This document shows, one piece after another, positions 2,649-35,790 of a stretch of DNA of 64,000 bases; the first letter of the stretch is position 1; each line of letters begins with the position of its first letter. The notes under the pieces were generated by a model, which made no database searches, was not told the DNA's origin, and was given only the letters and a program-made list of their open reading frames with translations. The translations under genes and the position numbers were made by a program. Source of the stretch: Marsupella aquatica (Eukaryota; Plantae; Marchantiophyta); the NCBI GenBank assembly GCA_973895155.1, contig OZ316892.1, forward strand, positions 7,857,251-7,921,250, in the 5' to 3' direction.

Positions 2649-2801
2649 GAACATCTTACCTCTGCTTTTACTGTGTCCTCGTTGATTGCTTGGCAATTGA
2701 AACGAGGACGTTGGTTCTGGAGTTGTGATTCTGCGACACGGATTGAATTTCTGAGTTGTTGTGGAGTTTAGGGTTTTGTGGCGGGAGCCTGTACTGAGTG
2801 C

Positions 2802-2840
2802 ATGGCAGGGACAGCAGCGGGAGCAGCAGGAGCGGCATAG
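2802..2840 (+). promoter_or_regulatory. Short upstream ORF (MAGTAAGAAGAA*) ending 1 nt before the helicase ATG
   Basis: ATG at 2802, TAG at 2838-2840, main ATG at 2842. Confidence 0.5.
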
Positions 2841-2841
2841 G

Positions 2842-5800
2842 ATGGGTGCAAATGGGAAATTGGACGAGGAATCTCTCGGGGTGTCGAAGAAAGGGTCTCG
2901 AGATCGCCATCTGCGCAAGAGAGAGTATTACGACGATGTCGACGACGTGGAGATCATCACGGAGAAGAGCAGCAAGAGGGACAGCGATCGGTCCAGGAAA
3001 GAGGATCATAAATCCAGCGACAGGGCGGAGAGAAACAGAGACAGAGATCAAGAGAAAGTGAGAGACAAGGAGGAGAAGCGTGCGAAGGACAGGGATAGCG
3101 GTGCAGAGAAGCCGGCGGAGAAAGAGAGGGATAGAGCTAAGGATAAAGGTAGAGAGAAGGAACGAGATAGGGAAAAGGATAGAGAGGGTCGTGGGAAATC
3201 GAGGGAGAGGGAACGAGAGAAGGACCGGGAGAAATCCAAGCGGAAGGAGAAACACAGAGACCGTGATGGAGAGTCGGACGATTTGGTGAGGGACAAAGAT
3301 AGGGAGAAAAGGGAGAAAGATAAGTACCGAGATGAACCAGAAGGATACCGAGAGAGGGATAGAGAAAAAGACGAGGAGAGGAGAAGGGAGAAGGAGGCAG
3401 CGAAGGAAAAGAGACGGGAGAAGGAGAAGAGAGACCGATACTTCGAGAAGAGAGAGCGTGAGAAGCACGAGAAAGGGGACGAGGAGGAGAAGGACCGAGA
3501 TCGGAAAAAGAGGAGGAAAGAGGAAGATGTGGACCTCATTCATGACAAAAAACACGAGACCGAGGAAAATGATTTGGATTTGGATGAGGAGCAGAGGAAG
3601 CTGGATGAGGAAATGGAAAAACGGCGGCGGAGAGTGCAGGAGTGGCAAGAGCTTAAGCGTCGGAAAGAGGAGGATGAACGGAAGAAAAGGGGTGACACCG
3701 ACGTGGCTGAGGAGTCGGTTGCGAATGGTAAGGCATGGACACTAGAGGGGGATGATTCAGATGACGATGAGGAGGGAGTGAAGGAGGGTCAGCAGCCCTC
3801 TGCAACCAAGGTCATGGCATTTGAGAATGGGGACGTTGTCATGACAGAGAGCAAGGAGGATCCCTTAGGGTTAGAGGACGCTGTGGAGAAAATGGAGGAC
3901 GATAGCGACGATCAGGTGCAGGAATCGGTTGCGAAACAGGATGATGATGACGAGATTGACCCACTCGATGCGTTTATGAATGCGATGGTTATTCCTGAAG
4001 TTGAGAAGATGAGTCAGGACCCCATTCTGTCTGAATCTGCACCGATTGTAGGTCTCAAAGGGAGCACGGCCCAGCGACCGAAAGAGGTCAAAGTTTTCGA
4101 TAAGAGTGGGAAGGCCATAAAGAGGGAGGCAAAATTAGCAACTGGCAGAATTATTGCTGGTGAGGATTCCGCATCAGATGTTGACTATGGAGAGGATGGA
4201 GAAGAGATTGTGGGCGAAGAAGACGACGATGATTTCATGAAGAGAGTGAAAAAGAGCAAGGCTGAAAAGTTGGCCCTTGTGGACCATTCTAAAGTTCAAT
4301 ATTCCACCTTCAGAAAGAACTTTTACATAGAAGTGAAGGAGATTTCTAGGATGACACCAGAGGAGACATCAGCTTTACGAAAGGAATTGGAGTTGAAGGT
4401 GAGAGGGAAGGAGATACCGCAACCTATCAAAACATGGAACCAGACAGGTCTTAGTTCCAAAGTCTTAGATGTCATAAAAAAATTGGGGTTTGAGAAGCCA
4501 ATGTCAATTCAAGCCCAGGCCCTCCCCATTATTATGAGCGGAAGGGATTGCATTGGTGTTGCGAAGACAGGCTCTGGGAAGACATTGGCCTTTGTTCTCC
4601 CCATGCTCCGACACATAATGGACCAACCTCCCCTGGCTCAAGGCGACGGGCCCATTGGGCTGATCATGGCTCCAACGCGAGAGCTAGTTCAGCAAATCTA
4701 CAGTGACATTAAGAAATTCTCGAAGGGTATGGGACTGACTTGTGTTCCTGTTTATGGGGGCTCGGGGGTTGCACAGCAGATCAGCGACCTCAAGAGGGGT
4801 GCGGAGATCGTTGTCTGTACGCCTGGCAGGATGATTGATATCTTGTGCACAAGTGCAGGGAAGATAATGAACTTGCGCCGGGTCACCTATCTAGTGATGG
4901 ATGAGGCCGACCGTATGTTTGATATGGGTTTTGAGCCGCAGATCACAAGGATTGTGCAGAACACTAGACCTGACCGTCAAACTGTATTGTTTTCAGCTAC
5001 CTTTCCGAGACAGGTAGAAGTCCTCGCTAGGAAGGTTTTGAATAAACCAGTGGAGATACAAGTTGGAGGCCGAAGTGTGGCCAACAAAGACATAACACAA
5101 ACTGTGGAGGTGCGTCCGGACAGTGAAAGATTCCTGCGACTGTTGGAGTTGCTCGGAGAGTGGTATGAAAAAGGCAAGATTCTTATCTTTGTTCATTCTC
5201 AAGAAAAATGTGATAGTCTTTTCAAAGATTTATTGAGAGCTGGTTACCCCTGTTTGTCTCTGCATGGCGCTAAGGATCAAACAGATCGGGAGTCCACTCT
5301 TGCAGACTTTAAGTCCAATGTTTGCAACTTGATGATTGCCACTAGCGTTGCTGCAAGGGGGTTGGATGTGAAGGAACTGGAGTTGGTCGTTAATTACGAT
5401 GTTCCCAATCATTACGAGGATTATGTCCATCGTGTGGGTCGAACTGGGAGAGCTGGCCGCAAGGGTGTTGCTGTTACTTTCATCTCCACCGATGAAGAGA
5501 GATATGCTCCAGATCTCATGAAAGCGTTAGCACTCTCAGAGCAGCCAATACCTGATGATCTGAAAAAGTTGGCGGACGATTTTATGAGTAAAGTGAAACA
5601 AGGCAGCGAACAAGTACATGGAAGTGGTTATGGTGGAAGTGGGTTCAAATTCAACGAGGAAGAAGAGGAGGCTCGAAAGGCCGCAAAGAAAGCTCAGGCT
5701 AAAGAATATGGATTCGAGGAGGACGAGGACAAATCAGATTCTGAGTCTGAGGATGACGGTATTCGCAAAGCCGGTGGGGACTTGGCCCAGGCTGCAGCTG

Positions 5801-6600
5801 CAGCTGCTCATGCTGCTGCGATTGCTGCTGCGGCAAAGGCAGGAATTACTTCCATTGGAACTCCGACTCTCGGAGTTGGAGGAATGGCAGCTGGAAATCA
5901 ACAATTGCAAGCTGCGCTTGCCATGGCACAAGCTGCTGCAGCTAGCCAGGGTTTGCCAACACAATTCTCGGTTCCTGGTTCATTAGGGGTTAGTGGAATG
6001 GGATTCCCAGGTTTGAATTTGAGTGGCATGCCAGGCATGGGAATGAATATGAACATGATGAACATGGCTGGTATGGCAAATATGGCAAACATGGCTGGAA
6101 TGGCGGGAATGCCTGGGATGTCAGCAATGGCCGGGATGCCTGGTATGGGGTCATTGGGTATGCTAGGAATGGGCTTGCCACAGAGTAGCACACCAGGAAA
6201 TCTGAACGATGGAGCAGCAAGGGCTTCCGCATTTGCAGCGGCACTCAACTTGCAACACAACCTGGCCAAAATTCAGGCTGAGGCGATTCCCGAGCATTAC
6301 GAGGCAGAGCTGGAAATCAATGACTTCCCTCAGCATGCTCGATGGAAGGTGACTCATAAGGATGCCCTTGGGCAAATAAGTGAATGGACTGGTGCTGCAA
6401 TCACAACTCGTGGACAGTTTTTCCCAGCTGGCAAAGTCCCTGCTCCTGGAGAGCGGAAGCTCTTTTTGTTCATTGAGGGGCCAACAGAGGCATCTGTTAA
6501 GAAGGCCAAAGCTGAGGTGAAGCGTCTTCTGGAAGAGTCCACATCTGCAGCCACTTCACTCCCTGTGACCGTACAACCTGGGAAGTATTCTGTACTATGA
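2842..6600 (+). CDS. RH42: DEAD-box ATP-dependent RNA helicase, PRP5/DDX46/RH42 type (U2 prespliceosome assembly)
   Basis: RE/RD/RK-rich N-terminus and DPLDAFM motif. Helicase motifs: AKTGSGKT (I), PTREL (Ia), TPGR (Ib), DEAD (II), SAT (III), ARGLD (V), HRVGRTGRAG (VI). C-terminal KH-like ELEINDFPQ..RWKVT...GAAITTRG. First in-frame ATG is at 2842; the ORF track starts at GTG 2761. Confidence 0.95.
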   Translation: MGANGKLDEESLGVSKKGSRDRHLRKREYYDDVDDVEIITEKSSKRDSDRSRKEDHKSSDRAERNRDRDQEKVRDKEEKRAKDRDSGAEKPAEKERDRAKDKGREKERDREKDREGRGKSREREREKDREKSKRKEKHRDRDGESDDLVRDKDREKREKDKYRDEPEGYRERDREKDEERRREKEAAKEKRREKEKRDRYFEKREREKHEKGDEEEKDRDRKKRRKEEDVDLIHDKKHETEENDLDLDEEQRKLDEEMEKRRRRVQEWQELKRRKEEDERKKRGDTDVAEESVANGKAWTLEGDDSDDDEEGVKEGQQPSATKVMAFENGDVVMTESKEDPLGLEDAVEKMEDDSDDQVQESVAKQDDDDEIDPLDAFMNAMVIPEVEKMSQDPILSESAPIVGLKGSTAQRPKEVKVFDKSGKAIKREAKLATGRIIAGEDSASDVDYGEDGEEIVGEEDDDDFMKRVKKSKAEKLALVDHSKVQYSTFRKNFYIEVKEISRMTPEETSALRKELELKVRGKEIPQPIKTWNQTGLSSKVLDVIKKLGFEKPMSIQAQALPIIMSGRDCIGVAKTGSGKTLAFVLPMLRHIMDQPPLAQGDGPIGLIMAPTRELVQQIYSDIKKFSKGMGLTCVPVYGGSGVAQQISDLKRGAEIVVCTPGRMIDILCTSAGKIMNLRRVTYLVMDEADRMFDMGFEPQITRIVQNTRPDRQTVLFSATFPRQVEVLARKVLNKPVEIQVGGRSVANKDITQTVEVRPDSERFLRLLELLGEWYEKGKILIFVHSQEKCDSLFKDLLRAGYPCLSLHGAKDQTDRESTLADFKSNVCNLMIATSVAARGLDVKELELVVNYDVPNHYEDYVHRVGRTGRAGRKGVAVTFISTDEERYAPDLMKALALSEQPIPDDLKKLADDFMSKVKQGSEQVHGSGYGGSGFKFNEEEEEARKAAKKAQAKEYGFEEDEDKSDSESEDDGIRKAGGDLAQAAAAAAHAAAIAAAAKAGITSIGTPTLGVGGMAAGNQQLQAALAMAQAAAASQGLPTQFSVPGSLGVSGMGFPGLNLSGMPGMGMNMNMMNMAGMANMANMAGMAGMPGMSAMAGMPGMGSLGMLGMGLPQSSTPGNLNDGAARASAFAAALNLQHNLAKIQAEAIPEHYEAELEINDFPQHARWKVTHKDALGQISEWTGAAITTRGQFFPAGKVPAPGERKLFLFIEGPTEASVKKAKAEVKRLLEESTSAATSLPVTVQPGKYSVL

Positions 6601-10454: not shown

Positions 10455-11374
10455 GACATAGGATTATTTTTAAGCCATTTTGAATTTGTCTAACCATTCT
10501 AGGTAATGTTAGAGTGTATCATACTATCTAGATCCGTATGTTTAGTATGTGGACTATATGAGCCGATAAGGTTCTGTTAGGTTTGTGTGAGAGAGTAGTT
10601 CTCTCGTGTGAGGCATCAAAAGGGTTATCTTTCGATGTTGAGCCTGAAGTTGAAAGCTTAGCTATGGTGGCTGAGAGCTCTCTTATGTAACGTGGATTCC
10701 TTGAAGCACAAGGTGCATTGGGCTTGATATACGTGTGTGATCGCATTGGACGGATCGATGTCGGTTGTTGTTCCATTTTCTGCACTTGAAAAGATTACAT
10801 CGAAAGATCACTGCAAGTTGATCCGAAATGGTTTCGAAGCTTGCTGTATTGCAGAGTTGATCCATGGTAGCTTGGATCGTGGAGAGCTTGTTGGTTGATT
10901 TGTGTTAGCTCAACTAAGATCAGTCGCTAGTTGATTGGGGATTGTGAGCTATTGATTGCTCTGAGAGCGCAGCTTGGTGCTGTTTTGCAACTCTCTTATA
11001 GTTTGTTCATTGAAGTCCTATTGAAGTTGATTACCAGATTGACATTTGGATCTTGTCAAATATGGCAATGAGGGACTGATCGAAGATCAGAAGGCGCTTC
11101 GAGTGCTGGTTGCTACATTGCGTTTTTGGAGTTCTAGTCCTTATTGATTGCATTTCAGCATTGCAAGGGTTTTTGCGGATTTGAGGTTTGTTGATGGATA
11201 GTGCATTTTTATGAAGCAAGTGACAATCGAATGTTGGTGAATTTTGTTGTCGGCGTCGCGATGGAGTCCGCGTTGAGACGAGGTGCGGCGATGACCTAGG
11301 GCACAAGGAAAACGACAATAGTGTTGAACAGTACTTTTGTCCAAGAATTGTGACGTGTTTTGTGGCGCACCTTG

Positions 11375-11670
11375 TTTTGGATTCGGATCATCCTAGTCCA
11401 ATTGTGGGTTGTCTCTTGAGACCTCATTTTGACTCAAAGTTGAATGTGGATTCGGATCATCCCAGTCCAACTATACATTGGTAACTTTGGACTTGAAGTT
11501 GAAGTTGGATTGAGATCATCCCAATCCAACTATATGTTGACAACGTTGGAGACTTGATTTTGGGCGAAGGTGAATTTGGATTGGGATCATTCCAATCCAA
11601 CTGTATCTTGGCATGTCCAGAGACCTCATCTGGACCTTGAAGTGGATTTGGATCATCCCAATCCCACTGT
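11375..11670. repeat. Tandem array of 5 units (~60-70 bp), each with the palindromic core TTGGATTGGGATCATCCCAATCCAA
   Basis: Cores at about 11378, 11447, 11506, 11576 and 11643; a further copy at about 12269-12291. Confidence 0.8.
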
Positions 11671-11748
11671 ATGTTGGTGACTTCACCTGCGTAGCGGGGT
11701 GGACGTGAAGAACTTGGACCTACTGGAGCAGTATACCAGCCCGAGAGA

Positions 11749-12060
11749 GTGCTACTAGATACTGGTGCCCAACCCTTGATGTTGGGTAAGTCTGCGGTAC
11801 AAGGATTGGGATTGGGATCTAGAGGAATGTCCCTTTCCTATTCAAACTTCATTAGGGGGACCTACACCACACAACACATCACCAGACGATCACTTGACTT
11901 GAGAATTCAGGAGGGTCATGCCAAGGATAGCTCTCACATACAGACGTGAGCTATTCTGACTAAGGCGGAGTCCTATGATGTGTTGGTGGGATCGATGTAC
12001 ATGCTTTACCTCATGGGATTCATTCTTGATTTTTGGGATGAATCAGTTTCTTATCGACCT
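11749..12060 (+). pseudogene. Retroviral-type aspartic protease remnant of the Gypsy pol
   Basis: VLLDTGAQPLMLG active-site motif; downstream SYDVLVG resembles the ILG flap region; frameshifted. Confidence 0.75.
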
Positions 12061-12419
12061 GATTGGCAGTCTGAAAATGCTCGATTAAGCAGATTGCCAG
12101 TGTGATTTAGTGGACCTATGGGAGGCCCTAAATCTGCATCATTATCGTTGGCAACATTCAGTGGAGTGATTATTGGACCTAATGATTTGATTGAGAGTAA
12201 TGCACATGCAACAGATGTTTCATCAGTGGAGGAGTCACATGAGGAGCACATGGTGCGGAGGAGAAACCTGGATTGGGATCCCAATCCAAGTAGAGTTGTG
12301 CTACAAGTATGGGGTGCTGCATAGGCCTTGCCGCAAAGGGCAGCATAATTGGTACATGATGCATGGCATCATGCTTTTACACCACAATCGGAGCAGAGTA
12401 GGCTCCTACAAGTGGGCCA

Positions 12420-12816
12420 GTGACTCTTTCACCATTGGATATCACCCCTATTGCGTGGCAGTATCCACCAAAGGGTATTTGTTTGTTGGATCTATTTGGT
12501 GGGATTAGCATTGGATTGGCTGTTGTTCTTCAAGCAGGAATTTCTGTGCGTTGTTATTTGTATGTGGAGATGGATGAGATAGCACGGAGGGTCTCATTGC
12601 GGCATGTGGCTATGTTGGTGGATAGATATCCATAGTTGCTGCCAGTGGATGTTGTTTGTGGTTATCAGCATGCACTACTTACAGATATTTCATTGTTGGG
12701 GGCGGATCATTTGTATCGTGTTGGCCCCATTGATTTGGTGATTGCTGGTTGGCCATGTCATGGCCAATCTAGAGCTGGTGTTGGGCATGGCCTTCATGAT
12801 CCACGCTCTGCATTAT
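12420..12816 (+). pseudogene. DNMT3-like C5 cytosine methyltransferase, N-terminal half (motifs I-V), within Gypsy pol
   Basis: LLDLFGGI (I), LYVEMD (II), TDI (III), IDLVIAGWPCHG (IV, catalytic PC), GLHDPRSALF (V). One in-frame TAG at 12633-12635. Confidence 0.9.
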
Positions 12817-14295
12817 TTACGGACCCCCATTAGGGGTCTCTTGCAAATTCTCTTCCAGGAGGTTGCGCCACATCATCACAACTAGCCACAAATAGGAATG
12901 ATCCTACTTTTAACAATAACAAACGTGCACATTCCTGTTTGTGGCAAAAGCAACGTAATTTTTGGGGCGCCATGCCGTAAATACTAAACGTAAAAAAACC
13001 AAAATACAAAGGAAGAGATGTCATTTAGTAAAATAAAGTTACCATTTTGATGTTTGTCAAAGATATATCAATGTTTTATATCAAAATGTTTGTATTTTTT
13101 AATTGTTTACAAGTTTGAAAAAATTAATCGATAGAAATGTACATAATTAAAACCTATTTGGCTTCACATTGTAAAACTAAATAATAAATCTCCTTAGTAC
13201 TTGATAAAATTTTCCAATGTTTGATTCATTGGAAAATTCAAGATTTTGAAACTTGTGATCTCTTTAGTAATGTCTTGATAAAATCTCTCAATGTCACTCA
13301 TTGGAAAGCTAGAGTAAAATTAAAAACTCATCATCTCTTTCGTACTTGACAAAATCTATCAATGTTAGGTTCATTGGAAAGCTAGAGAAATTTAGATACT
13401 CATGATCTTCCTATTTCTTGACAAATAATCTCAATGTCACACATTAGAAAGCTAAAACGATTGAAAATCTCCTGATCTCTTGAGCACCGTGATAAAATCT
13501 GACATAAAATTTGTAAATGTCAGACTCAATGTTAGAAAGCTAAAAGAATTCATGAACTCATAATCAAATTTTTTTATACTAACACTCATTGGAAAGACAA
13601 AGATGTTCAAAACTCATATGGAACTTGACAAAATTTGTCAATTTGAGGCTCATTGGAAACCCTTTCTCGAATAAGAGATATCACAATCTCGTCACCATCA
13701 CAAACTTAGCCGCTACAAATTGATTTCTTTGATTATGTCACCATCGCTTGTCCACAATGCTTGCTTCCCAGCTTGAATTGTTTGCATCTCTTAGATAGTC
13801 TTCAACTAAAGCTCACTCTGAACACAGGTTGACGCCAAATGCAACCTCTATGTCAAAGAAACAATTGTTGGTCTTCCCCTCACACCATAGCTTTCTTAAA
13901 TAAAAATAACTACAAATCCTTTGTTTGAAGTGACGGCTCGTTCATTTTGTGTGAACATTCTTCCCACCAAATTGACAAGTGTTCTTTTGCCAACAGCTGA
14001 GTGTTGTGCTCTAGTCTGTCTTGTGGCGGTAATGCTCAATGTAACTCACAAACAATCAATCAAGAATGGTTGAAAGATTATTTCTCCAATATGTAAGCAA
14101 AACCTATAAGAAAACTCAATTCCTCCACATTCAACCTTTCATTTGATTAATCTCTATCTTTTGAGCATTTGTTTTTGTACGAGCAAACACCAACACCATC
14201 GGGAGACTCAAATTAAACCGTTGGTTACCGCCTTGATGAAAATTGATTTCACTTAATCACACAAACATTCCTTGGATGAACATGGGGGTCCACGA
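12817..14295. mobile_element. AT-rich non-autonomous TIR element inserted in the DNMT domain
   Basis: Termini TTACGGACCCCCAT and ATGGGGGTCCACGA form an imperfect 14-bp TIR; flanks are ATTAT/ATTAA. Removing it restores ...DPRSALF|WEMLRVLRHLQ... in frame. Confidence 0.75.
13190..13660 (+). repeat. Tandem ~57-60 bp repeat inside the TIR insert
   Basis: About 7-8 copies of CTTGA(T/C)AAAAT..TCAATGT..CATTGGAAAGCTA..AAAACTCATGATCTC. Confidence 0.8.
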
Positions 14296-14300
14296 ATTAA

Positions 14301-14930
14301 TTTGGGAGATGTTACGGGTGTTGCGTCATCTCCAGCTACATCAGACATAGTCTCCTGCATACATTTTGGAGAATGTGCCATTGTTAGGTGATGATCATCG
14401 TCAAATTGTTGCTAGTGTTCACCAGGTGAGGTCTTGGATTGGACCTGTTGTGTTATTGGATGCTGCACGTGTGGGTTCTCATGCACATCGTCCACGCTTG
14501 TGGTGGACTAATTTGATCCCATGTGAGGTGCTGAAGCGCGCATTTGACAGCATTCCACGCTCAACAGCCTTAGTGGTGGATGATATTTTGGATCCAGGGC
14601 GTCGTGCACAGGGTGTGACCCAACCTGACAGACCTCCATTGGCAATGGTCAATGTCGTTGGGCGCCCACGTTGTGCATTACCCACTCTTGTGAGCCACTC
14701 TGCTTCATATGCATTCAGAGCAGGTGGCCCTGGACTTGTGTGGGACACAACTCTCTAGCAATTAGTGGAACCTACTGCTGATGAGAGGGAGCGTGCTATG
14801 GGATTTTTGACAGGCACCACTGTAGTTGCCTTGGTGTTAGAGAGTTCACGCCGCCAGGTCCTTGGTCAAACAATGGATTTGAATTGCTTGACTTGGATTA
14901 TCAGCTTGGGAGTCGCTGAACAGTTGCATA
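14301..14930 (+). pseudogene. DNMT3-like C5 cytosine methyltransferase, C-terminal half (motifs VI-X)
   Basis: YILENV (VI), LDAA (VII), AHRPRLWWTNL (VIII; compare DNMT3 AHRARYFWGNL), ADERERAMGF (IX), RRQVLGQTM (X; compare RQRLLGRSW). Contains in-frame stops. Confidence 0.9.
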
Positions 14931-15145
14931 TGCGCTCTGCTGGTGTTACTAATCATCCATTAGTGAGCTTGCGGTCCACTGAGATAGTGATGACCACAGC
15001 TGGGGGCGAGGAGACAGTCCATGGACCTATGGCAGGACTGGCCAAGGCTGGACAGATTGTTGAGCAAGAAGGGGCTGCTCAATCTACTGCTAAATAGCAA
15101 TCATCGGCTATCTCTTCTACCCTACAAAAAGATATTAGGGATCTG

Positions 15146-16185
15146 GTGGAGAGTTGGGAGCCACATATTGGTCCTAAGTTGACAGGGGAGGAGAGACGTC
15201 GCATGCATCGATTCCTGAAGAGTTACTGGAATTGTTTTGCATTCAGCATGAAGGATTTGGGGACATTGAAGGGCCCTGGTATTCAAATTGAATTGGCTAG
15301 TGATACGCCAATCTTTCGTAGACCATACCGTTATAGTGACATGGAGAGAGCTCTGATTCAAAGCAGAACTCAAGATTTGTTGGAGATTGGATTGGTGGAG
15401 ATTTCATATGGGGAGTATGCATCTGCCACAATGATGCCAGCCAAGAAAGATGTGCATGGCAATTGCATAGATAGGCGCATGTGTGGTGATTACAGACCTA
15501 TTAATCGCCAGACAAAATCTGATCGATATGCCATGCCCACACCTGAGGAGATCTTTGATGTTATGGGGCATGCAAAGGTTTTCAGTTCATTGGATCTGAG
15601 GGTAGGGTACCATCAGCTTCCAATTAGGCATGCTGACAGGTCCAAGACAGCATTCTGGGGGATTGATTCTTATGGCAAAGATCATTTGTATCAGTGGTTG
15701 TTCTTACCATTTGGGTTGAAGAATGCACCAGTTGAGTTCCAGAGAGTCGTGGATTGAATCCTTGCAGGTTTAAATTTTGTCAGATGTTATATTGATGATA
15801 TTTTGGTCTATTCTTCCACTCTGGAAGAACATCAGTAGCACTTGCAGATTGTGTTGGAGAGATTGAGAGAACATGGGTTGAAACTCCATCCTAACAAGTG
15901 TAAGTTCTTCCAAGACCAGATTGAGTATTTGGGCCACACTATATACCTAGGGGGATTGGGTGTACAACAGACTAAAGTGGAGGCCATTACACAGATTCTT
16001 TGTCCTACTGATGTGAGTAGAGTTCGTGTTCTTGGGATTGACGAGCTACTACAGGAGGTACGTTAAAGGATTTAGCCAGCTTGCTAAAGCTTTAACCATA
16101 CTTACTAAGTTGGATCAGAAGTGGATTTGGGGTGATGACCGGGAGCATGCCTTTCAAGATCTGAAAGAAAGATTGGCATCATCCC
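15146..16185 (+). pseudogene. Ty3/Gypsy reverse transcriptase (decayed)
   Basis: PIFRRPYR, RMCGDYRPIN, FSSLDLRVGYHQ, KTAF, LPFGLKNAP, YIDD, KCKF, YLGH, FLGLTSYYRRYV. Confidence 0.95.
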
Positions 16186-17675
16186 AATGGTGGACCTTGC
16201 CACCCAGTGCCCTCACCAATCCCAGCACTTGCGCCTAGCCCTTGGTGCCTGAACGCCTCCACGGAATACCTCGAGCAAACATCCAAGTGCCTCTAGCACC
16301 ACTAGCGGCCACTCCCATACGAAGCCGCACTTGCTCACCTACACGACCGCTACTCAACGGTCCTCACTGTTTGTACAAACAACCAAGCGCCTTGGTAAGT
16401 AACCCCTTCGGATCTAGAACCTGCCAAGTCTAGCATCCTAACTCAAGCTCAACAGACATTGGTAAATAGGTCAGCAATAGGTCCTCCCGATGCCATAAGC
16501 CGGAACCAGAACCCACGCCCACTGTCCGTCCAGGACAGCTCCTTCCTTGGGCGCGGCCCGGGTTCCCCCTCGTACCTATCCATCACCAACTGACCGCCCT
16601 GACCCTAGGACATGCTCATGGCCCAAATAGCGTAGCTTGTCCTAAAGCTTATCCCAATCTTGTCTTAACACGCCGGGACCAGAACGGCCCCGACTCTAAC
16701 ACCGACTCCCGGTTTTCCCCACTGATAGTCTAGGGACCGAGCGCTCTTGGGACTCAGCCTCCATACCTACTTGGCCTTGCCTCCCCAACGCAAGCTCCCT
16801 TGGGAGACTGAACGCGGCTTGGCTGCTGTTCGGCAGGATTTGGTACACGGGCGAGCTAACACCCGCTAACCACGAGAACCCATGGCACCCCCAGACCCAG
16901 CTGAGCTCAGGAGGGCGTAGCCCTCTTCAAGAGATTTCCAACGCACCTAAGAAGTCTTCCAACGAACTTCCCGTTGGGAAGATATTGCCATTTCCGTTTG
17001 GCGGTTTTCCTTAGTGTCGCGACCGTCGCGGCTCACGACTTCGGTTCGCCCTTAGCCCCCAGGGAGACACCACTCCTCTCATATATGCTTCTGGAGACCT
17101 GCCACCCTCGGACCAGCTTTGGTCCCTAAACATTTGGCCCCCAACCCGGATACCATCGCGCATAATGGGCGCACCACCAACTGGCAACGCCCATAACTTT
17201 CTTGATAGACATCCGCAAGCGGAGTGCCTTCGCCCATTGTGACCGGGCCGGCCCAGTGCTCATGCCTAGGCTCTCAGGTCTGATCGCCACTCGGGACCCC
17301 CGATCGGCCCAACCCGGCTCGGGCCACAACTTGCGCCCCAAGCGTCCGTTGCCAATGGCATCAACTCCATTGGCCTTGGCCCAAGAGGAGCTCACTCCCT
17401 ATCCCTCAGATCTCAAAGCCCATCCGATGGTCCGGACGGCCACCCTTGAGCCCGGCCCATTTCTCCTTGACCCAACCAGCCATAGGCTAGTCCAAGTCCT
17501 TAGTGTGTGTCCCCAGCTTGGTCCTTTGCCTTGCTAGTGCCACGTCTCATTGTCCACAAGTCTCCCCATGCTAAGTCCTCCCCGGATGGCCTATCCGGGC
17601 CTGGACCATAAGGGAGCTTGGCGTTGGAGTCAGCGACGCCGGAGCTAAGTGTTAAGGTAGTCGAGTTCCGCGACT
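16186..17675. mobile_element. 1.49-kb GC-rich insertion (probable solo LTR with non-TG/CA ends) between RT and RNase H
   Basis: Perfect 5-bp TSD ATCCC (16181-16185 and 17676-17680); removal restores LKERLASSP|ILRRP. Ends AATGGTGGACCT and AGTTCCGCGACT are an imperfect inverted pair. TATA-like CATATATG near 17080. Confidence 0.8.
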
Positions 17676-17680
17676 ATCCC

Positions 17681-18085
17681 CTATTTTGAGAAGACCCATT
17701 TCAAGGAGACCATTTCAGCTACACACTGATTGAAGTGGAGTAGGACTTGGAGCAATGCTAACTAAGAAGAATGATGAGGGGAATGAGTTTGTTGTGGCTT
17801 ATGCCAGTAGATCAAACAATTCAGCAAAGGCTAAGTATAGCTCTTATGAGGGAGAGTGTTTGGCAGCAGTATGGGTTGTTGCACACTTTTGTTGCTACTT
17901 GTTTGGTAACCCCTTCACCTTGATCATTGATCATTAGCCTCTCAAGTGGTTAATGGAGTCTGACAAGCTTACAGGGAAGCTTGCACGATGGGCATTATTG
18001 TTATAGGAGTATGATTTCCAGGTGGTGCATAGACAAGGAAAAGTGAAATTGGACGCAGATGGATTGAGCCGCAATCCATGTACCA
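17681..18085 (+). pseudogene. Ty3/Gypsy RNase H (decayed)
   Basis: FQLHTD*SGVGLGAML, VVAYASR, YSSYEGECLAAVW, IDH*PL, ADGLSR. Confidence 0.9.
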
Positions 18086-18429
18086 GCCAGGAGGATGAGA
18101 CTGGAGCCAGATGGCACGATGATTCAGATAAGGAGATGGTGCTAGGATGGCATGCATCTGCCTTCCTTTGTTGGGTCCAGCATGCAGTGGATTTGTGGAC
18201 TCTACTTCATTGGATGAAGCAAATGATGAGTCTACAGATATGGATGTTGGTGAGGTTGTGGTTGGACAACAGGATATTTACAATGATGAGAGAGTGTTGG
18301 AATATATGCACATTGGTTCTATTGGTGGCAGTGTTGATGCCAAGGAGCGTGACAAGGTTATGCAAAGAGCCAAGAGGTTTTGATGGGAAGGAAACCATCT
18401 TTTGAGAGTACTACGTGATGGTAAGGTAT

Positions 18430-19574
18430 TGGTGGTACCAAAACCATCACAACGAGTACATTTGGTGCGACATGCGCACGAGGAGTGGGTAATTTTGGTG
18501 TGAAGCGCACTTACAGTTTGCTGCAGACATAGTATTGGTGGTGTGGTATGCACACTCATGTCCAGCAACTGATAGCTAAGTGTGTGGTATGTGATAGAGT
18601 GAGAGCATCATTTAATGCTCCCACTCCCCAGTTACATCCGTTGCCGATCATGGGTTTAGGATATCGTTGGAGTTTGGATTTTGCTGGTCCATTACCTCTT
18701 ACCCAACGTCATAATTGGTATGTTTTGGTCACGGTGGAGCATTTCTCCAAGTGGATTGAGCTAGTGGCGTTGCTAGATAAAGCTAGCGGAGGAGTTGCTG
18801 CCACATTTTTGGATCGTGTACTTAGTCATTTTGGAGCACTAGCGTGAGGTGTTGACTGATCAGGGAACTGAGTTCCATGGAGAGTTTGAGAGTTTGTGTG
18901 AGCAAGCTTTGATTGATCATCGTACTACTTCTCGTGACCATCCTGAGGTAGATGGATTGACTGAAAGAGTAGTGCAAACTGTGAAGAGAGGATTGCGCAA
19001 GTATGGCTTGCAAGTTGGTCATCTAGGAGATTGGGATCTCCAATTACCTTGGTTAGCTATGGGCTGCTATTTCAGCCGACAAGCATCACTTGCATCCTTC
19101 TCACCTTATTTCTTGCTCTATGGTAAAGAGCCAGATTTGCCGGTAGCTATTTGTCGTGATATTGCATTGGTTGTGAACTTGGATAATCATGATGTTTGGA
19201 TCAAGGTTTGTTCAGAGAGGGCAAGGATTTTTGAGAGAGTCATGCCCATGGCCTTTGATAACCTTGCCATTGCCCAACATCGTGATACTTTGCGGTATGC
19301 CACTATTTGTGGAGGGGGTTATTGTGCAAGGATCCGACGATTTCATCCAGGTGATTATATTTATTTGCAGCAGACAGCACCAATGACACTTGATGTGACC
19401 GCAGGTCGGACCATTTTGTGTGTGCATGAAGTGTTGCCTTATGGTGTCCTGATGTTGGAGGGACGTGATGGTATGGTTTGGAAGGATCGTGTGCGCAACT
19501 ATGCACCGTGTCATCTTCCAAACATTGATGGTACAATAGATCCAAGCTTAGCCCATGTTCGTGCTGGCTTGAAG
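18430..19574 (+). pseudogene. Ty3/Gypsy integrase (decayed)
   Basis: HHCC zinc-binding region (HAHEE...CVVC), SLDFAGP, VEHFSKW, LTDQGTEF, GLTERVVQT, SPYFLLYG. Confidence 0.92.
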
Positions 19575-19715
19575 TGTATGTTGTGTGGATTTGCTCAAGG
19601 AGCAGCTACTATATTGATTTGTGATAAGTGTTTTAGAGGATGACACATGTCGTGTTTGACACCACCATTGGAAGTGATTCCTAGTGGATCATGGCTTTGT
19701 TCTCAGTGTTGGTGA
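19575..19715 (+). pseudogene. PHD finger fused to the integrase C-terminus
   Basis: CMLC...ILICDKCFRG*HMSCLTPPLEVIPSGSWLCSQCW* is a C4HC3 PHD pattern; the internal TGA is most simply a mutated TGG (GWH). Confidence 0.9.
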
Positions 19716-19890
19716 TGCCAACTAGTTATCATTTGCGTTCTCTTAGCATATATGGATTGCAGGTAGGTGATCGATGGGGCTCACTTGCACCCGGCCTCTT
19801 GATCTTCACACCTAAAAAGGTGTATATCAACCTTGTAGAACTTATGGCTAGCTAGAGTTAGGGGACCTTATTCCCAGCTAGGGGGACGAT

Positions 19891-20382
19891 TGTGGGTTTT
19901 GGACATGTGTGGACATCAGTTCCACTTGTATTCCATTCTCTTGTGTTTGTGACATGGCAGTGTGACTATGTCTGGATGTATGTGACAAGCGATGTATGTT
20001 GTGTAGCGATGTGTATGTAGATGACAAATTGAAACTTTTATCATTTCATTGAAAAATGCCTACTCGTACAGAAAAACTCAACCTACATCCTAGTCATGGT
20101 TTCCTTTAGGAACCATAGAGTGAGCCATGTCATGCAATGCAAGGTGCAAGCTCATCTTACCATGGTATAGGAAAGAGACAGACCCTGACTATAAAGAAGC
20201 CCATTCACTCAAGATACCATTTCAAAATTGTCAAACTGTTGCCGGAAGCAAAGTCTTATGGACTCAAACTTTTTAGACGTAAGATTCGTATGGGGCTTGT
20301 ATTTAGGTAGCTTGTAATTTCTTATGTCCTGGTCATAAAACAACTTTATGGCCTTGGGCTGTATCTAATATATGGAGTTGTT
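19891..20382 (+). repeat. Probable 3' LTR of the DNMT-Gypsy, interrupted by the DNA transposon (may resume at 38604 to ~38649)
   Basis: Starts with TG directly after the PPT; CTATAAAG TATA-like at ~20189; sequence past the right TSD ends ...TGTTACA at 38649. No 5' LTR is available for comparison. Confidence 0.5.
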
Positions 20383-20934
20383 CTCGGGGGTCTCACTCCG
20401 CGAAAATCTCATATCACGTGCGACGAAGTATAGGGTCCGTTAATTGGGTTTCTCGGAAGACTTAAGAAGATTTGTGTAAGAACAATAGGGTCAACTTTAT
20501 ATGTTGGACAACTTGTAAGAATAATAGGGATATTAATATTTTTGACTTTGTAGATGGAAGGCATACAAGGAAGTTAGGGGTCTTTGTGTCAGACTATATA
20601 AAGTACACGTGTCACTATGTCATTGGTACACGTGGCACACATAAAGTTTCCAATATATTTTCCTAAGTCATGTTTATGTTAACATGGCAAGAATTTGAGA
20701 ATGATTAAGTGGGTCTGGATTTTTGGGGACTCACGTTTAGGGTTTGACCGGGATTAAGTTTGAAATTGTTCCGTTTAACGTGTCTCGTTTCCCTCCACTA
20801 TCCCTTTGGCCCTTGTCAGTCTCCTCCCGTGTCATTTCCCTCCACTATCCCTTTGGCCCCACCCATTGTTTGCCTCAACACAGTCTCTTTTGTTTAGGCC
20901 TTGCAGCGAATGGTCTAAATGGGGTCTAACCGAG

Positions 20935-21460
20935 TGTGCTACTGCTTGGAGTGAAGAAGGATCGAGCGAGAGTGTCGTGCTCTCGGCTGCATTGCTGCTG
21001 CGGCTGCTTGGAGTGAAGAAGGATCGAGCGAGAGTGTCGTGCTCTCGGCTGCATTGCTGCTGCAGTTGCTTGGAGTGAAGAAGGATCGAGCGAGAGTGTT
21101 GTGCTCTCGGCTGCATTACTGCTATGGCTGCTTGGAGTGAAGGATCAAGCAAGAGTTCTCAGCTGCACTACTGCTTAGAGCAAAGGATCAAGCGAGAGTT
21201 GTCGGTTGCGTTGCTGGTGCTACGATGAAGGGGAGAGCGAGAGTGTTGCACTCTCGGCTGCGCTGCTGCCGCTGCTGCTTGGAGTGAAGGGGAGAGCAAG
21301 ACTTCTCAGTTGTGCTGCTGCTTGGAGTGAACTCGGGAGTGAAGGATTGAGCGAGACTTCTCAGCTGTGCTACTGCTTGGAGTGAACCCGAGAGTGAAGG
21401 ATCGAGCGAGAGTGTTGCGCTCTCGGCTGCGCTGCTGCTTGGAGTGAATGATCGGGCAAG
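20935..21460 (+). repeat. Subterminal tandem repeats (~57-60 bp) of the DNA transposon
   Basis: About 9 copies of GCTGCTTGGAGTGAAG(AAG)GATCGAGCGAGAGTGT(C/T)G(TG)C..TCTCGGCTGC; shorter GGGAGTG repeats continue to ~21780. Confidence 0.85.
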
Positions 21461-21935
21461 AGTATTGCGCTGCAAGGTTGGAGTGTATAGGTGCGTTGCC
21501 TACTGTCTGTGGTTGAGGGAGTGTGCTACGTTCCTCCTTGCTGAAATGATAGGGAACGTTTATGTGATTGCTGTGTTGTTGCTCAAACAGGGAGTGCGGG
21601 CGGGAGTGTGGCTGTTGCAAGTGCTGCGTTGCAGCTGCTCAAATAGGAGGTGGGTGCCGGGAGTGTGGCTCTGCTAGTTGTTGAAATGGGAGCGGGAGTG
21701 TTGCATTGCTACTTGCTCAAATAGGAGTGCCAGGAGTGCTGCCAGCATTGTTGTGTTGCTCAACCGGGAGGTGGGCGCTTCCTACTTTGACGATCGTAAG
21801 ACATGATCGGTAACAGATGAGGCTCGTTTGCTTTTTTCTCTTTTGTTTCTCAAGCTTCTGGGCAAGGGCATTACCATTCTGGATTGAACTTGGTCCTATT
21901 CAGGTTGAGCGATCGGGCTGCATTGTGTTGCAATC

Positions 21936-24900
21936 TGTCGTATGCTAACAAAAGCAAATATCATCGAATATATGCTAAAAACTCGGTGTTCGTTCCCGTG
22001 GAAGAACAAGAATGGGATGAAAAGATGTTTTAAAGTGTTTTGAGTGGTTTAGAGATGGTACTCAACATCTATAAGAAAAATAGAATCTTAAACAAAACAC
22101 AAGGAATTAATAAAATAAGAACAAAGTGACATTTGCTGTATAACAGAATCTTAGAGCTTTTAGAGGTATAGTTTAGCAATATTTAACTCCGTCACCATGT
22201 CTTAAGAAAGAGCTATGGCATTATTTGAGACGTTGATAAGTCAAACATAACCTTGCTATAACTGCTCTCTAGGTTTCTATCATAAATCTATGTTTAAGAA
22301 GTGTCTATGCTCACAAAATCCAAGATAAGTTTCAGATTGTGTGTATAGTAGTGTGTCATTAAAATGCCGGCAACATGTTTCCTTCTTCAGCGATGCGCAA
22401 TTCCAAAGAAAAACTAATGCACATTCAGTATACCACAATGGTACTTCAAATCCGTGAATTAAGAATGTCGCTACTTCTTAATCATATAGATTTCTATTTC
22501 TTGATTTCATGCAATACTTATCTTCCAAAGATAAGTCCTTCATGTAAATACAGAATTGGACAACAAATGTTGTAGTTTGGATTAGGCACCGACCAACGGA
22601 TCTTCTAATACATTCCACAAACTGTATTTTTATGGGTTTTACTTCTTACGGTAATTGCAACATGGATTACCATACGAAGGAGGGGTAGACTCCTAGCACA
22701 AGTAATCAAATTCCAAGGTATGCAAATCTTCCTTGCAAAATTGCATTACACGTACAAGGGACAAAACTCCAAGATGAGGAGATGCAAATAACTATCCACA
22801 CTGTCTCAAAATGAGACTGGTATCACAATAAGTACATGAGATCACCCACGGGCTAAGGAGAATGAAGAGACATGCCTCTTCATTTCCTAGTCTAAACTAA
22901 GTAAAGTAAAAGTCAACTTTGACTAAGGGATAGTCAAATGGTCAAAGCTAAGTAAAAGTCTACAAAATAAAATACTAATCTCATACTGTAATAGGAGGAG
23001 GGTCGACTACAAGTAGAGGGAGGCGAGCTACATAACCAAGGGCTATCTTCCCTTTGGTCCTCTGTCCCTTCAAATACTGTCGACGGAAAAGGTCCTCTCG
23101 GTAACGAATCAAATGAGGCTCACTGGTCTTCCGAATGGGATGTCCATCCGGTCCAATCCAAACAAAGTAATCTGATGGCCGTGGAATGTCTGGAGCTGGA
23201 AGAGGGAAAGGTGCTATGACCTTTCTACAATGATAAACCCAACTCCAAAGGTCAGGAGTCTCAATCGTGGGTAATCTCAGCTTGTCGATAGGTAGCCATA
23301 GAATACCACGAGAAATCGGAACCATGTCGTAGGTGTGTGGAAAAGGAAAAGACTCACGACCAAACATAAGTGGAGGTAAAGGAGGTGCAAGAGGAGTGCG
23401 TGCGTCAATGAGTGACGTAATCATCCTATCAAACTGGGCGGGAAAGACAAAAAGAGGCTCAATGTCTGCAACAGAAGAGACAATAGGAGGCTGAGACATC
23501 AAAGGAGTAGGAGCTATAAATGGTACACTGGGAGAGTCTACAGTCTCAGGCTCAGGCTCAGTCTCGGGAATAGGTTCAGGAATAGGTTCATCTCCTTCCA
23601 TGGTAGGAGAGGGAAATGAATCATCAAGGGGTGATAGGGTGGTATCCTCAATAGAGGAAAATGGATTTGGAGGGGGTACTGGTGAAGGGGGTAAAGGCTC
23701 AGGGGTAGGAGATGGAGGGTGCTCAGGTGAAAATGTAGGAGGGATAGGGGAAAGAATGGGATCAGGTAGAGGGGGTGTAGGTGAGGATGGAGGAGAGAGT
23801 GAAGGGTCAGCAATAGGTAGCTCCGGCTCATCAGCATCCATAGGGTGATCAGGCTGTGGTGAAGGTGCAAGGGGTGAAACATGAGGGGGTGGGACGATAC
23901 GAGACTCGGAAAGCAAAGCACAAATACAGTCAAGTAACTGTAGAGGGGTACAACTCAAAAGTCTAGTGGCCTCATCTACCAAATGCTGGTTGAAACCAGC
24001 CACACTAGCTAGTCGCTCAGCATCACCAACAAAATCAGTCCATGATGGATAAGAAGTGGAAGCAACGAAAGAGGGAGAAGTCATCCCTGGTAGATCTGGT
24101 GCTGTCGTCTGCTCCACTGGAGGGGGTCTCGGAGATGTCGTCGGTGGTGGAGTCAACTCTCTCGCTAACTCTGGCTGAGGTAGCTCAAAGTGTCTCGCTC
24201 TCCTCCTCCAATCGCTCAGCTCCACTGGTAATAAGCAGCCTCTCGAAAAGTAAATGTGCGCCAAGTAGGGTGTTAGATAGGTATCACTAGTAGTAGACAA
24301 GACAGCCACCTGCTTGGCGATCACCTCCGAAAGAGCTAAGGCCCAGTTGATCCTCCTCTTGCCGGTCCATGATACGATGATAGAGCTGGTCAAGTAAACC
24401 ATAGCCCTGGTGGGTTTGGTTGGATGAAAGATAGGTACAAGGAATCGGAGTAGATGAGCTAACTCCCGGTTTGTGCACTGATCAATCTTCCAACCAGACC
24501 TCCGGTCCCTGGTACCTCTAAAATAGGGGGCAGTCAAGTCCTCTCCAACAGAGATAAGTCTCTCTCCCTCCTGGCTCAACTGGTACACCTCAGAAACAAC
24601 GGCGGTGGTACACACATCAGCTGAACCTCTAGTAGAACTCCGAAAAGTGCCAGCTCGGGGTGGACGAAGAAAATCGGCAATGATGGACCCATGCACCATA
24701 TCCCAAGGAAGAAAAAGTAAGGAACTCAAGCCCATCTCTACCAGGTTACTAAGGAGTCTAAAGTAAGCCTTAGGACCTGGGGGTAAGGTCACCCTAATGG
24801 CCTTACTAATTGGTAAGCTTCTGGTGGCCATAGCTCAGAAAATCTGAGAAGGCTCTAGAGCTCTCCTCCTAAAAACGGGTAAGCATTGAGGCTCAAGAAT

Positions 24901-27420: not shown

Positions 27421-27833
27421 CCAACAATTTGGCCTCAAAATGAGTGTCTTTTACGCAAGATTGTCATCCCGGACACGCTTGACATTGTAGTCCCTGATAG
27501 TATTCCACATATAACTGAGCTTGATATTGTAGCCCCAGATAGTATTCTAGATCAAGCTAAGGTTACAGCCCATGGATGCTTGACATTGTAGTCCCTAATA
27601 GTACATGGATGCGATGTTCATATATGAGTAGGCCTTTGTTTGCAAGGCTGGAATTGTACCATCCATGATATAAAGAATATTATTCATTCCCATTATGTGG
27701 CAAAGTTTCGCAAGCTGGCATTGTATTTATGTATGTCTTGGTTGGTGGGTGTTCAGGTTGCACTGTGTAGTTGACTTCATCTGGGAGGGAGGTTTGCAGA
27801 TCATTGGAGCAGGTGCTATGATTAACCTTATCT

Positions 27834-28575
27834 TTGTCTATGGATTGCCCACTATCATACATGTCCCCCTCATATGTGATGTGCTTTGTGATGATTGCAG
27901 TTGTAACCATGCCGACAAGGACTTCAAACACAAAGAAAGCAACACAGTCCTCTGACAAAGGAGCCTCTTTAGAAGAGGCATTGCGTATTCCGTTGTTCTC
28001 TGAGCAAGAGATTCTACAAACTAGCCCTCATGTTTGTGCAATTTGTGAGCATGGTGGGAAGTTGGTAATTTGTGATGGGCCATGTCACAGGCAATTTCAT
28101 TATGTGGTTGGAGATGAAGCCCCTAATGACTCTTGCCCCTGTGTAGTCCTTCCCCTCCATCATGGAGGGAAGCCATGGTTTTGCCCAAATTGTAACCAGG
28201 ACCAGGCCATGTGTTATGGGTGCCACACTGTGGGACCGTCACCTACAATTGTGCGAAAATGCTCTGATCGTTTTTGTGTCCGATTTTATTGTTTTGGGTG
28301 TTTGGTAGCTGATGCAAAGTCCTGCCCACCGCATACATGTTATCAGAGTCTTGAGGGTCAGATGGTCAAGAACATGGTACAATGTCTACGATGTCCAAAT
28401 GCCTGGCATACAGATTGCCTCCAGATGATCAAAAGCAAAGGGTTTGCTCATGATAGGGACATCTGGGAACATGAAGCACATGGACAACAACGACAGATGT
28501 TTTTATTGCCGCCGTCATCCTATTGATCCACACCTCAAGACTCCAATCAGGGACCACATTTCATGGCTCCAGTGA
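27834..28575 (+). pseudogene. EDM2-like composite PHD-finger cassette carried by the DNA transposon
   Basis: CAICEHGGKLVICDGPCHRQFH...WFCPNC...AMCYGCH...KCSDRFCVRFYCFGC...CPPHTC...QCLRCPNAWHTDCL. After a frameshift near 28500 it reads YCRRHPIDPHLKTPIRDHI, which resembles the EDM2 tail IYCLKHEID..GTP.RDHI as recalled. Confidence 0.75.
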
Positions 28576-30174: not shown

Positions 30175-30595
30175 TGTTGAGCATAGACGACGATCGCAAC
30201 GGCAAGCCCATGAACCATCCAACGCACAATAGTCGACACAAGAGATACGTGGTTCACCTCCTTGAGGCTACGTCCACGGGAACACACAAGAGAGCTTTAC
30301 TGAACTCTAAGCCCGTCGGCTATACCGAGTCTCCATAGTGTAAGCTCTCCCTATCTCTCAAGTGGCTCCATAACAATGAGCCTTGGTTCTACCTCTCCAA
30401 GCACACATGCCTCTTATGATATAGTGTGCAACTTAGTTGTACCTAACCACATAGTTGTACCTAATCACGTAGTTGTACCTAACCACATAGTTGTACCTAA
30501 TCACGTAGTTGTATCTAACCACGTAGTTGTACCAACCCACGTTGTTGTACCAACCACGTCATACCTAACCTAGACGTAAGAGTAAATACCCAACA
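30175..30595 (-). repeat. Copia 3' LTR
   Basis: Direct repeat of 35791-36211; one mismatch seen by eye (30336 T vs 35952 C). Contains about 7 copies of the 18-bp repeat GTTGTACCTAACCACATA. Confidence 0.95.
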
Positions 30596-30785
30596 ATCTT
30601 CCCCTTGACTCTGGTCTAGGGGAGAGTAATACTGCCAATGTATATGATCCCTCAGCGGGAAGTTCTGGACAGAACCAAACCGGTTTCCCTCTCTAACTAG
30701 AGCAAACCAGAACTAAGCCGTAGCCTAATACATAGGAATGAGGAAGAGCATATATCAGTAATTACAATGAATGTTTAAGAAAACT

Positions 30786-33700: not shown

Positions 33701-34013
33701 GTCTACTCCCCTTCAAAATCACTGTCTCTCCCGACCTGACTTGAAGTTCACCATCAATAACGCTCCATTGATGACCATTTGAATCCAACACACCGAGTGA
33801 AATCAGATTCTTACGCATGCCAGGTACATACCTGACTCCGGACACTGTGCGCACAGCGCCATCAAACATTTGAATCTTCACAGACCCAATTCCCTCAATT
33901 TGACAGGAGTGATCATTTCCCATCAGAACTGAACCGTTTGAAATAGAGTAAGAACTGAAAAACTCACGAATGTAACAAATATGAAAAGAGCAAGCACAAT
34001 CAAGAATCCACAC
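30786..34013 (-). pseudogene. Copia pol (protease, integrase, RT, RNase H) with one in-frame TAG at 31950-31952
   Basis: WILDCACSFH (PR), WHSRLGH..CEHC, HSDVWGP, RSDNGGEY, NGVAER (IN), KARLVAKG, QMDVVTAF, LYGLKQ, YVDD (RT), DSD, EAEY, KHID (RH). Confidence 0.95.
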
Positions 34014-34058
34014 ATCATCTGCTCTCCTAGATGACGTGCACAGGGCATATCCCCGGCT

Positions 34059-35776: not shown

Positions 35777-35788
35777 GCTCTGATACCA
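35777..35788 (-). promoter_or_regulatory. Primer-binding site (tRNA-iMet)
   Basis: GCTCTGATACCA on + equals TGGTATCAGAGC on -, 2 nt inside the 5' LTR. Confidence 0.92.
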
Positions 35789-35790
35789 AT

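Follow-up and report, generated by a model that had tools for sequence, protein, structure and literature searches.

A decayed Ty3/Gypsy retrotransposon in a liverwort belongs to a green-plant lineage with a DNMT3-like methyltransferase and a PHD finger

Does a retrotransposon in a liverwort genome carry its own DNA methyltransferase, or does a host pseudogene lie beside it by chance? The question is raised by a 64,000-nucleotide stretch of Marsupella aquatica (assembly GCA_973895155.1, contig OZ316892.1, positions 7,857,251 to 7,921,250 of the forward strand; hereafter the window), in which a first-pass annotation had described a Ty3/Gypsy element with a cytosine methyltransferase and a PHD reader. 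We find a decayed, gag-less Ty3/Gypsy copy at window positions 10487-20026, an identity that is near certain. Its domains run in the order protease, C5 methyltransferase, reverse transcriptase (RT), RNase H, integrase and PHD, interrupted by two nested inserts. The motifs listed by the annotation (LLDTGA, LFGGI, GWPC, ENV, AHRPRLWWTN, ERERAMGF and RRQVLG, followed by RT, RNase H, integrase and a C4HC3 PHD) all lie at the places given for them. The copy belongs to a multicopy Ty3/Gypsy lineage with a DNMT3-like domain and a PHD finger that includes land-plant relatives, and the arrangement is not a chance juxtaposition.

The methyltransferase of the window copy is divided into an N-half (12468-12815, plus strand), which holds motifs I to IV including LFGGI and GWPC, and a C-half (14300-14908, plus strand) with ENV, RxR, ERERAMGF and LGQxMD. 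Pfam run on the stop-to-stop open reading frames (ORFs) of the window misses the domain entirely, and PF00145 gives 0.0092 for the N-half and no match for the C-half. A profile built from 11 relatives matches the two halves at 3.5e-32 and 4.3e-75, and intact relatives exceed the PF00145 cut-off, so that the assignment to the C5 methyltransferases withstands the profile check. A phmmer search of the PDB with the domain of L025, an intact relative, places DNMT3A, DNMT3B and DNMT3C in the top 29 positions (best 6e-8), with M.HaeIII, M.HhaI and DRM2 below them. The AlphaFold model of this domain (pLDDT 91) has the same enzymes as its top Foldseek matches, at an E-value of 1e-18, a TM score of 0.74 and 22% identity. 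Motifs I, IV, VI, VIII, IX and X and the modelled fold are those of a C5 DNA methyltransferase, and the motif order is unrearranged in an intronless domain inside the Gypsy coding region. The domain is thus DNMT3-like in sequence and in predicted fold, as the annotation had supposed from the spelling of the motifs.

Linkage to the retrotransposon is seen well beyond this copy. The methyltransferase precedes RT in 36 of 69 metagenome loci, and 78 proteins were retrieved with its C-half as query, the named sources including Marchantia polymorpha, Calypogeia fissa, Sphagnum, Closterium and Haematococcus. A search with integrase and PHD extended the list, by way of the integrase, to Volvox, a protein labelled Chromochloris and one from a Coleochaete transcriptome, the last comprising ORF2 only; no Klebsormidium-named sequence occurs among the matches of the protein searches. 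Intact relatives consist of ORF1 (Gag-CCHC-protease-methyltransferase), one in-frame stop and ORF2 (RT-RNase H-integrase-PHD), which in L025 are 1369 and 1047 amino acids long and separated by a single stop. Five Marchantia proteins are full-length Gag-CCHC-protease-methyltransferase products with PCQ and ENV intact, and all five stop 83 amino acids past the methyltransferase domain. Chance proximity of a host DNMT3 pseudogene, which the weak Pfam scores of the window's own halves might seem to favour, can be given almost no weight: the same order recurs in the 36 loci and in named plant proteins, the domain has no introns, the trees described below are congruent, and contigs of the window's own family from public runs cover the methyltransferase domain.

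A second architecture, with the methyltransferase between RNase H and integrase, is present in 26 of 54 RT-bearing proteins, and the Haematococcus protein P0072 clusters with it. The two architectures separate in both the RT tree (support 0.98) and the methyltransferase tree (0.86). Trees were built with FastTree, midpoint-rooted, from hand-picked sets of 22 and 18 loci plus the proteins passing coverage filters. Across 48 two-domain elements the two trees largely agree: of 19 well-supported splits among the methyltransferases, 17 are also present in the RT tree, and in the reverse comparison 17 of 18. With support 1.0, the window methyltransferase groups with proteins of Calypogeia, Marchantia and Sphagnum. 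Because the trees hold no host DNMT3 or Klebsormidium outgroup, they cannot date or root the capture of the methyltransferase. Three proteins of the lineage (P0079, P0272 and P0078) carry cyanobacterial or spirochaete labels in NCBI, which are probably eukaryotic contamination of metagenome bins. Six IMG/VR loci match weakly (E 9e-7 to 1e-5) and were set aside as presumed phage methylases.

The element is larger than the 11700-19715 first assigned to it. Its true borders are 10487 (TGTC) and 20026 (GACA), flanked by a 4-bp target duplication AATT at 10483-10486 and 20027-20030; all parts that follow, the inserts apart, are on the plus strand. The left terminal segment, A, occupies 10487-10798 (right limit approximate) and is placed by contig joints and by a TGTC start common to 11 loci. 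Positions 10624-10639, the likely 5' end of the transcript, complement a likely self-priming primer-binding site at 10797-10811 in 14 of 15 bases, as read by hand from overlapping 13-mers. A leader follows at 10812-11712, where relatives have gag, and contains a tandem repeat of 59-71 bp at 11378-11677 (repeat family D10); contig depth in the public runs is low at 10734-11100. The decayed aspartic protease (LLDTGA, weak Asp_protease_2 match) lies at 11713-12120, and a conserved in-frame stop at 15095-15103 (TAG CAA TCA) separates the methyltransferase from RT at 15155-16030. RNase H starts upstream of the second insert and continues at 17681-18100, a frameshifted integrase with zinc-binding region and DDE core occupies 18400-19500, and the PHD finger closes the frame at 19560-19715, its stop codon at 19713-19715. 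In pieces translated with X at stops, Pfam recognises RVT_1 (2.7e-34), RT_RNaseH (1.6e-32) and PHD (5e-11); the integrase pieces match rve (7e-5) and Integrase_H2C2 (4.5e-4), both under the curated cut-offs. A polypurine-tract-like AGGGGG run at 19880-19888, in the same position in L032, L037, L015, L017, L025 and L047, lies directly 5' of the right terminal segment, B (19889-20026). Segment B, placed by contig joints and relatives, ends in GACA, with no further copies of A or B after it.

These parts place the element among known classes. The order protease, RT, RNase H, integrase with a DDE integrase is that of Ty3/Gypsy elements, and TG...CA ends with a target duplication in the 4-6 bp range are found in the window, L032, L017, L019 and L047, the duplication being 4 bp in each. 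No chromodomain follows the integrase, where a PHD stands instead and Chromo gives no match, so the element is not a chromovirus by this mark. It is likewise not a DIRS, PAT or Ngaro element: the two ORFs of intact L025 contain no tyrosine recombinase and do contain an rve integrase.

The window copy is dead, in agreement with the annotation. It has at least five frameshifts and ten in-frame stops across four scanned segments, the conserved stop at 15095 being one of the ten, and tblastn with the Gag regions of P0006, P0025 and L025 finds no gag in it. The two duplication-flanked inserts reported earlier are real, with limits that we refine from 12817-14300 and 16186-17680 to 12816-14296 and 16186-17675. 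Insert 1 is AT-rich, with imperfect terminal inverted repeats and a TTA duplication, and we take it to be PIF/Harbinger-like; its empty site is crossed by contigs of runs X1, X3 and X4 (skip of 1484). Insert 2 (1490 bp) is GC-rich, CpG-rich and very high-copy, has an ATCCC 5-bp duplication and an empty site crossed by contigs of runs X1 and X2 (skip of 1495), and shows the greatest contig depth of the whole stretch, a depth from public runs that is no copy number. It lacks TG...CA ends, its minus-strand ends reading AGT...ATT, and is possibly a solo long terminal repeat (LTR) with non-standard ends.

How is a product made from two ORFs separated by a stop? The TAG at 15095 is not a product of decay, as its conservation shows, and the single polyprotein of the first-pass annotation has to be given up: the stop divides the product. 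In 31 of 36 loci it lies 17-24 codons upstream of the point where the RT match begins, and it is kept in five of seven nucleotide clusters, the window counted. The RT frame is in register with the methyltransferase frame throughout, split by the stop in the 31 loci and fused to it in the other five, and the two ORFs of intact copies remain in the same frame. No variant is listed at a 5% threshold in four runs for window positions 15088-15103, and neighbouring positions vary. The hexamer after the stop is CAATCA in the window, L029 and L055, CAGTTA in L025 and L027, CAACTA in L042 and L044, and CAACCA in L007. An exact CARYYA is thus present in three clusters through four codon pairs that encode QS, QL or QP, compared with an in-frame background of 3 in 1047 codons of L025 ORF2. 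UAG-CAR-YYA is the type I stop-codon readthrough motif described for tobacco mosaic virus (in the part of PMC3542737 covered), where it likewise follows a UAG; in the window lineage the stop parts Gag-protease-methyltransferase from RT-RNase H-integrase-PHD. Low-frequency ribosomal readthrough would then probably yield methyltransferase at the level of Gag, and RT and integrase in far smaller amounts. The readthrough of SIRE1 between pol and env is a further parallel.

Several observations weigh against this reading of the stop. It is lacking in five loci of two clusters (L037, L043, L046, L061 and L062), and the largest cluster, 23 Sphagnum-type loci, has CAACCC (21 loci), CAACCT (one) or TAACCC (one) in place of the motif, CAA CCC being one base off CARYYA. 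The Sphagnum-type stop usually precedes an ATG, so that reinitiation is possible there instead. A private stop of the window copy at 14756 also reads TAG CAA TTA, which shows that the motif can arise by decay and leaves the readthrough case resting on conservation. L028 has TAGCCA after the stop, and the 80 nucleotides that follow it, folded for six sequences, reveal no common structure by eye (no shuffle control). As an observation of its own, the divergent loci L061 (7674-12071) and L062 (126-11491) have a 2027-codon upstream frame without Pfam match that overlaps a fused methyltransferase-RT-integrase-PHD frame; judged by sequence, the two overlapping frames are likely expressed by frameshift.

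The terminal repeats pose a second problem, for the window contains no LTR pair or end-to-end repeat. Contigs of its own family join 20017 to 10486 and 10743 to 19889, and L032 and L037/L043 retain a complete layout A1-internal-B1-NN-A2-B2, that is, DIRS-like split repeats, of which the window copy is a collapsed form. A begins with TG and B finishes with CA. The junction of B1 and A2 reads GACA-NN-TGTC, a perfect 16-bp palindrome in L032, and is present in 7 of 21 scanned PHD-bearing sequences from both architectures; the two-base CA-NN-TG junction is common to lineages with about 35-50% RT identity. The Type II loci L050, L052 and L057 have the junction and no second repeat copy within the contig. 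A purine run lies directly 5' of B1, A2 joins B2 at the primer-binding-site and purine-tract boundaries, and the sequence after A1 complements a stretch about 25 nucleotides behind a TATA-like box in A, in 17 of 17 bases in L032 and more weakly in eight other sequences including the window.

From this anatomy a replication cycle can be proposed. The RNA quite probably primes itself, as Tf1 RNA does, and the functional LTR would be B-NN-A; self-primed reverse transcription would then give complementary DNA (cDNA) with B-NN-A at each end. It is slightly favoured that integrase cuts the palindromic CA-NN-TG inside the LTR. If a two-LTR circle were opened at this internal palindrome, the product would be precisely the split-repeat form, its CA ends recessed in the standard way. 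The A...B form of the window, L017, L019 and L047, which lacks the 3' redundancy needed for a further round, would result from a one-LTR circle or from later recombination between B segments. Two results count against this scheme: the junction is absent from 14 of the 21 scanned sequences (collapsed, short or divergent), and the target duplication of L037/L043 is unclear.

What, then, might the methyltransferase and the PHD finger do? The methyltransferase is under purifying selection: four divergent pairs of domains give ratios of nonsynonymous to synonymous substitution (dN/dS) of 0.12, 0.12, 0.19 and 0.20, and the catalytic motifs are kept in most of the 78 matches, truncated proteins counted (PC/EC in 63, EN in 73). 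There is perhaps an even chance that a packaged methyltransferase marks the element's own cDNA before insertion. Speaking against such a role, three young Sphagnum-type pairs have a dN/dS of 0.40-0.55, which we attribute to decay of the copies, and an assay of the Klebsormidium domain in yeast detected no methylation, a result that its authors call inconclusive (PMC5890265, in the part covered). The CpG observed/expected ratio of the element (0.37-0.40) is also no diagnostic of self-methylation, since depletion does not single it out from a neighbouring Copia (0.50), a host gene (0.67) and relatives (0.27-0.78). The PHD closes ORF2 in both architectures. That of L025 has CHD4, PHF12, PHF21A, DPF3, KAT6A, KDM5, ATXR5 and UHRF1 as its best PDB matches, which we take to be readers of unmodified H3 tails, and it carries Gly at what is presumably the position of the cage Trp in K4me3 readers. 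Binding of H3 tails unmethylated at K4, with a bias of insertion away from active promoters, is marginally the better guess for its function. The annotation's pairing of writer and reader on one element stands; its picture of a single module does not, because the stop puts the methyltransferase on the Gag side and the PHD on the integrase side, so that the two would not be made in equal amounts.

Other accounts of expression and integration accept the same element and differ in mechanism. Pol could be expressed from a spliced RNA whose 3' splice site is the TAG, or by a restart of translation at an ATG close by, the methyltransferase remaining linked to Gag in either case. YAG is the end of a splice acceptor, and an ATG stands two codons past the stop in most Sphagnum-type loci; nevertheless this account is improbable, given that the conserved bases downstream of the stop fit CARYYA through different codons, that intact copies keep both ORFs in frame, and that the four codons past the stop contain no ATG in the window, L007, L025, L029 and L055. 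The split repeats might instead reflect tandem insertion or recombination in an ordinary LTR element, or DIRS-style templating of the ends, with integration from normal linear cDNA. Recombination after insertion can indeed yield A...B copies, and no circle was observed, so this alternative is a serious one even if the odds are against it. It has to contend with an identical two-base junction across such distant lineages, with TG, CA and target duplications that mark the start of A and the end of B rather than the primer-site and purine-tract boundaries, and with the split-repeat layout reported also for KnitGypsy-Dnmt3 of Klebsormidium nitens (PMC5890265, in the part covered).

The enzyme could also act on host chromatin or on integrated copies, as self-restraint or camouflage, or serve as a DNA-binding scaffold, and not touch the cDNA at all. 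Bulk expression would permit action beyond the particle, and the yeast result for the Klebsormidium domain fits such a role. We consider it rather unlikely: a domain fused behind Gag and protease would be carried into the particle, the second architecture with its domain between RNase H and integrase would be particle-bound too, and the catalytic motifs are retained. The reading that we favour as a whole, a dead copy of an old green-plant lineage of methyltransferase-bearing Ty3/Gypsy elements with readthrough, circle and self-methylation steps, has a good measure of our confidence. A stricter proposal, of an unnamed Ty3/Gypsy clade ranging from chlorophyte algae to liverworts and mosses that cuts an att site in circular cDNA, makes an active DNMT3-type enzyme at Gag level through UAG-CARYYA, methylates its circles and is guided in insertion by the PHD, is put forward tentatively from sequence comparison and is less likely than not to hold.

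The closest described system is KnitGypsy-Dnmt3 (de Mendoza et al. 2018, PMC5890265, main text and three supplements covered). The kinship in kind named by the annotation holds: both have Gypsy domains, an intronless, unrearranged DNMT3-like domain under purifying selection, and DIRS-like repeats. KnitGypsy-Dnmt3, compared by its description, is reported from a charophyte alga only and has the domain inside a single Pol ORF, and these parts of the publication mention neither a PHD nor a stop codon. SymbioDIRS-Dnmt3 and PAT/Ngaro-type DIRS elements resemble the window lineage in having a methyltransferase in a retroelement with split direct repeats, and SymbioDIRS domains methylate CG in yeast (same parts of PMC5890265); theirs is a tyrosine recombinase, whereas the window lineage has a DDE integrase and 4-bp target duplications. 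The chromoviruses Tcn1 and Tf1 (PMC6317226, in the part covered) share predicted self-priming and a chromatin reader at the end of the integrase, but the window lineage has a PHD in place of the chromodomain, split repeats and an added methyltransferase. Gypsy-7a_cRei and other Chlamydomonas elements are green-lineage Gypsy elements whose polyprotein likewise includes a PHD, for which a role in biasing insertion toward intergenic DNA has been proposed (10.1101/2022.06.16.496473, in the part covered); the comparison is by domain legend, not by sequence, and that legend has no methyltransferase. The PHD alone is therefore not new. Neither 'PHD' nor 'methyltransferase' appears as a word in the main text of the REXdb paper.

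Our literature search, which covered mostly titles and the start of abstracts and did not reach most subscription journals, theses or Repbase, returned no report of land-plant methyltransferase-bearing Gypsy elements, of the readthrough or of the junction. In this search no print source described the range in land plants, the readthrough stop or the internal att junction; the basic idea of a methyltransferase-bearing Gypsy element is already published. A 2019 opinion paper (PMC6338049, in the part covered) holds that DNA-methylase-encoding transposons are missing from land plants 'such as tracheophytes' and derives a hypothesis from their loss; the copies in liverworts and mosses restrict this statement, for bryophytes at least. 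The full-length Marchantia polymorpha copies are annotated as hypothetical genes (Mp_4g09160, Mp_Vg00370, Mp_Vg00540, Mp_5g06330 and Mp_5g06860). With them, the reason why retroelements carry methyltransferases can be tested in a genetic model, and they may distort tallies of DNMT genes in plants. The position of the stop predicts how much enzyme is produced, and the anatomy of the junction suggests a specific way in which the DIRS-like repeats of KnitGypsy-Dnmt3, so far unexplained, could arise. If true, internal att cutting would be an exception to the rule that the integrases of LTR elements use linear cDNA ends, and the lineage, with ORF1 intact in Marchantia, would combine a DDE integrase with a life cycle like that of DIRS elements.

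The remainder of the window holds other elements and genes. Immediately right of the element, tandem repeats of 55-62 bp occupy 20930-21480. A 617-codon proline-rich frame without Pfam match (22981-24834, minus strand) is probably an accessory ORF of another retroelement, and a 234-codon frame with two NSD-type PHD matches (27822-28526, plus strand) is possibly an exon of a host chromatin gene or part of another PHD-bearing transposon. The neighbouring Copia element (30175-36207, minus strand) is young, with end repeats 100% identical over 300 nucleotides and an 18-bp internal tandem; its gag, integrase and RT lie in a single frame broken by two stops. A xyloglucan fucosyltransferase gene (PF03254, 1e-50) at 47328-49190 on the plus strand points to a streptophyte host, most likely a land plant. 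At 2755-6600 (plus strand), a frame of 1281 codons that has no introns and contains DEAD, Helicase_C and KH_12 domains presumably encodes a Prp5/DDX46-like helicase.

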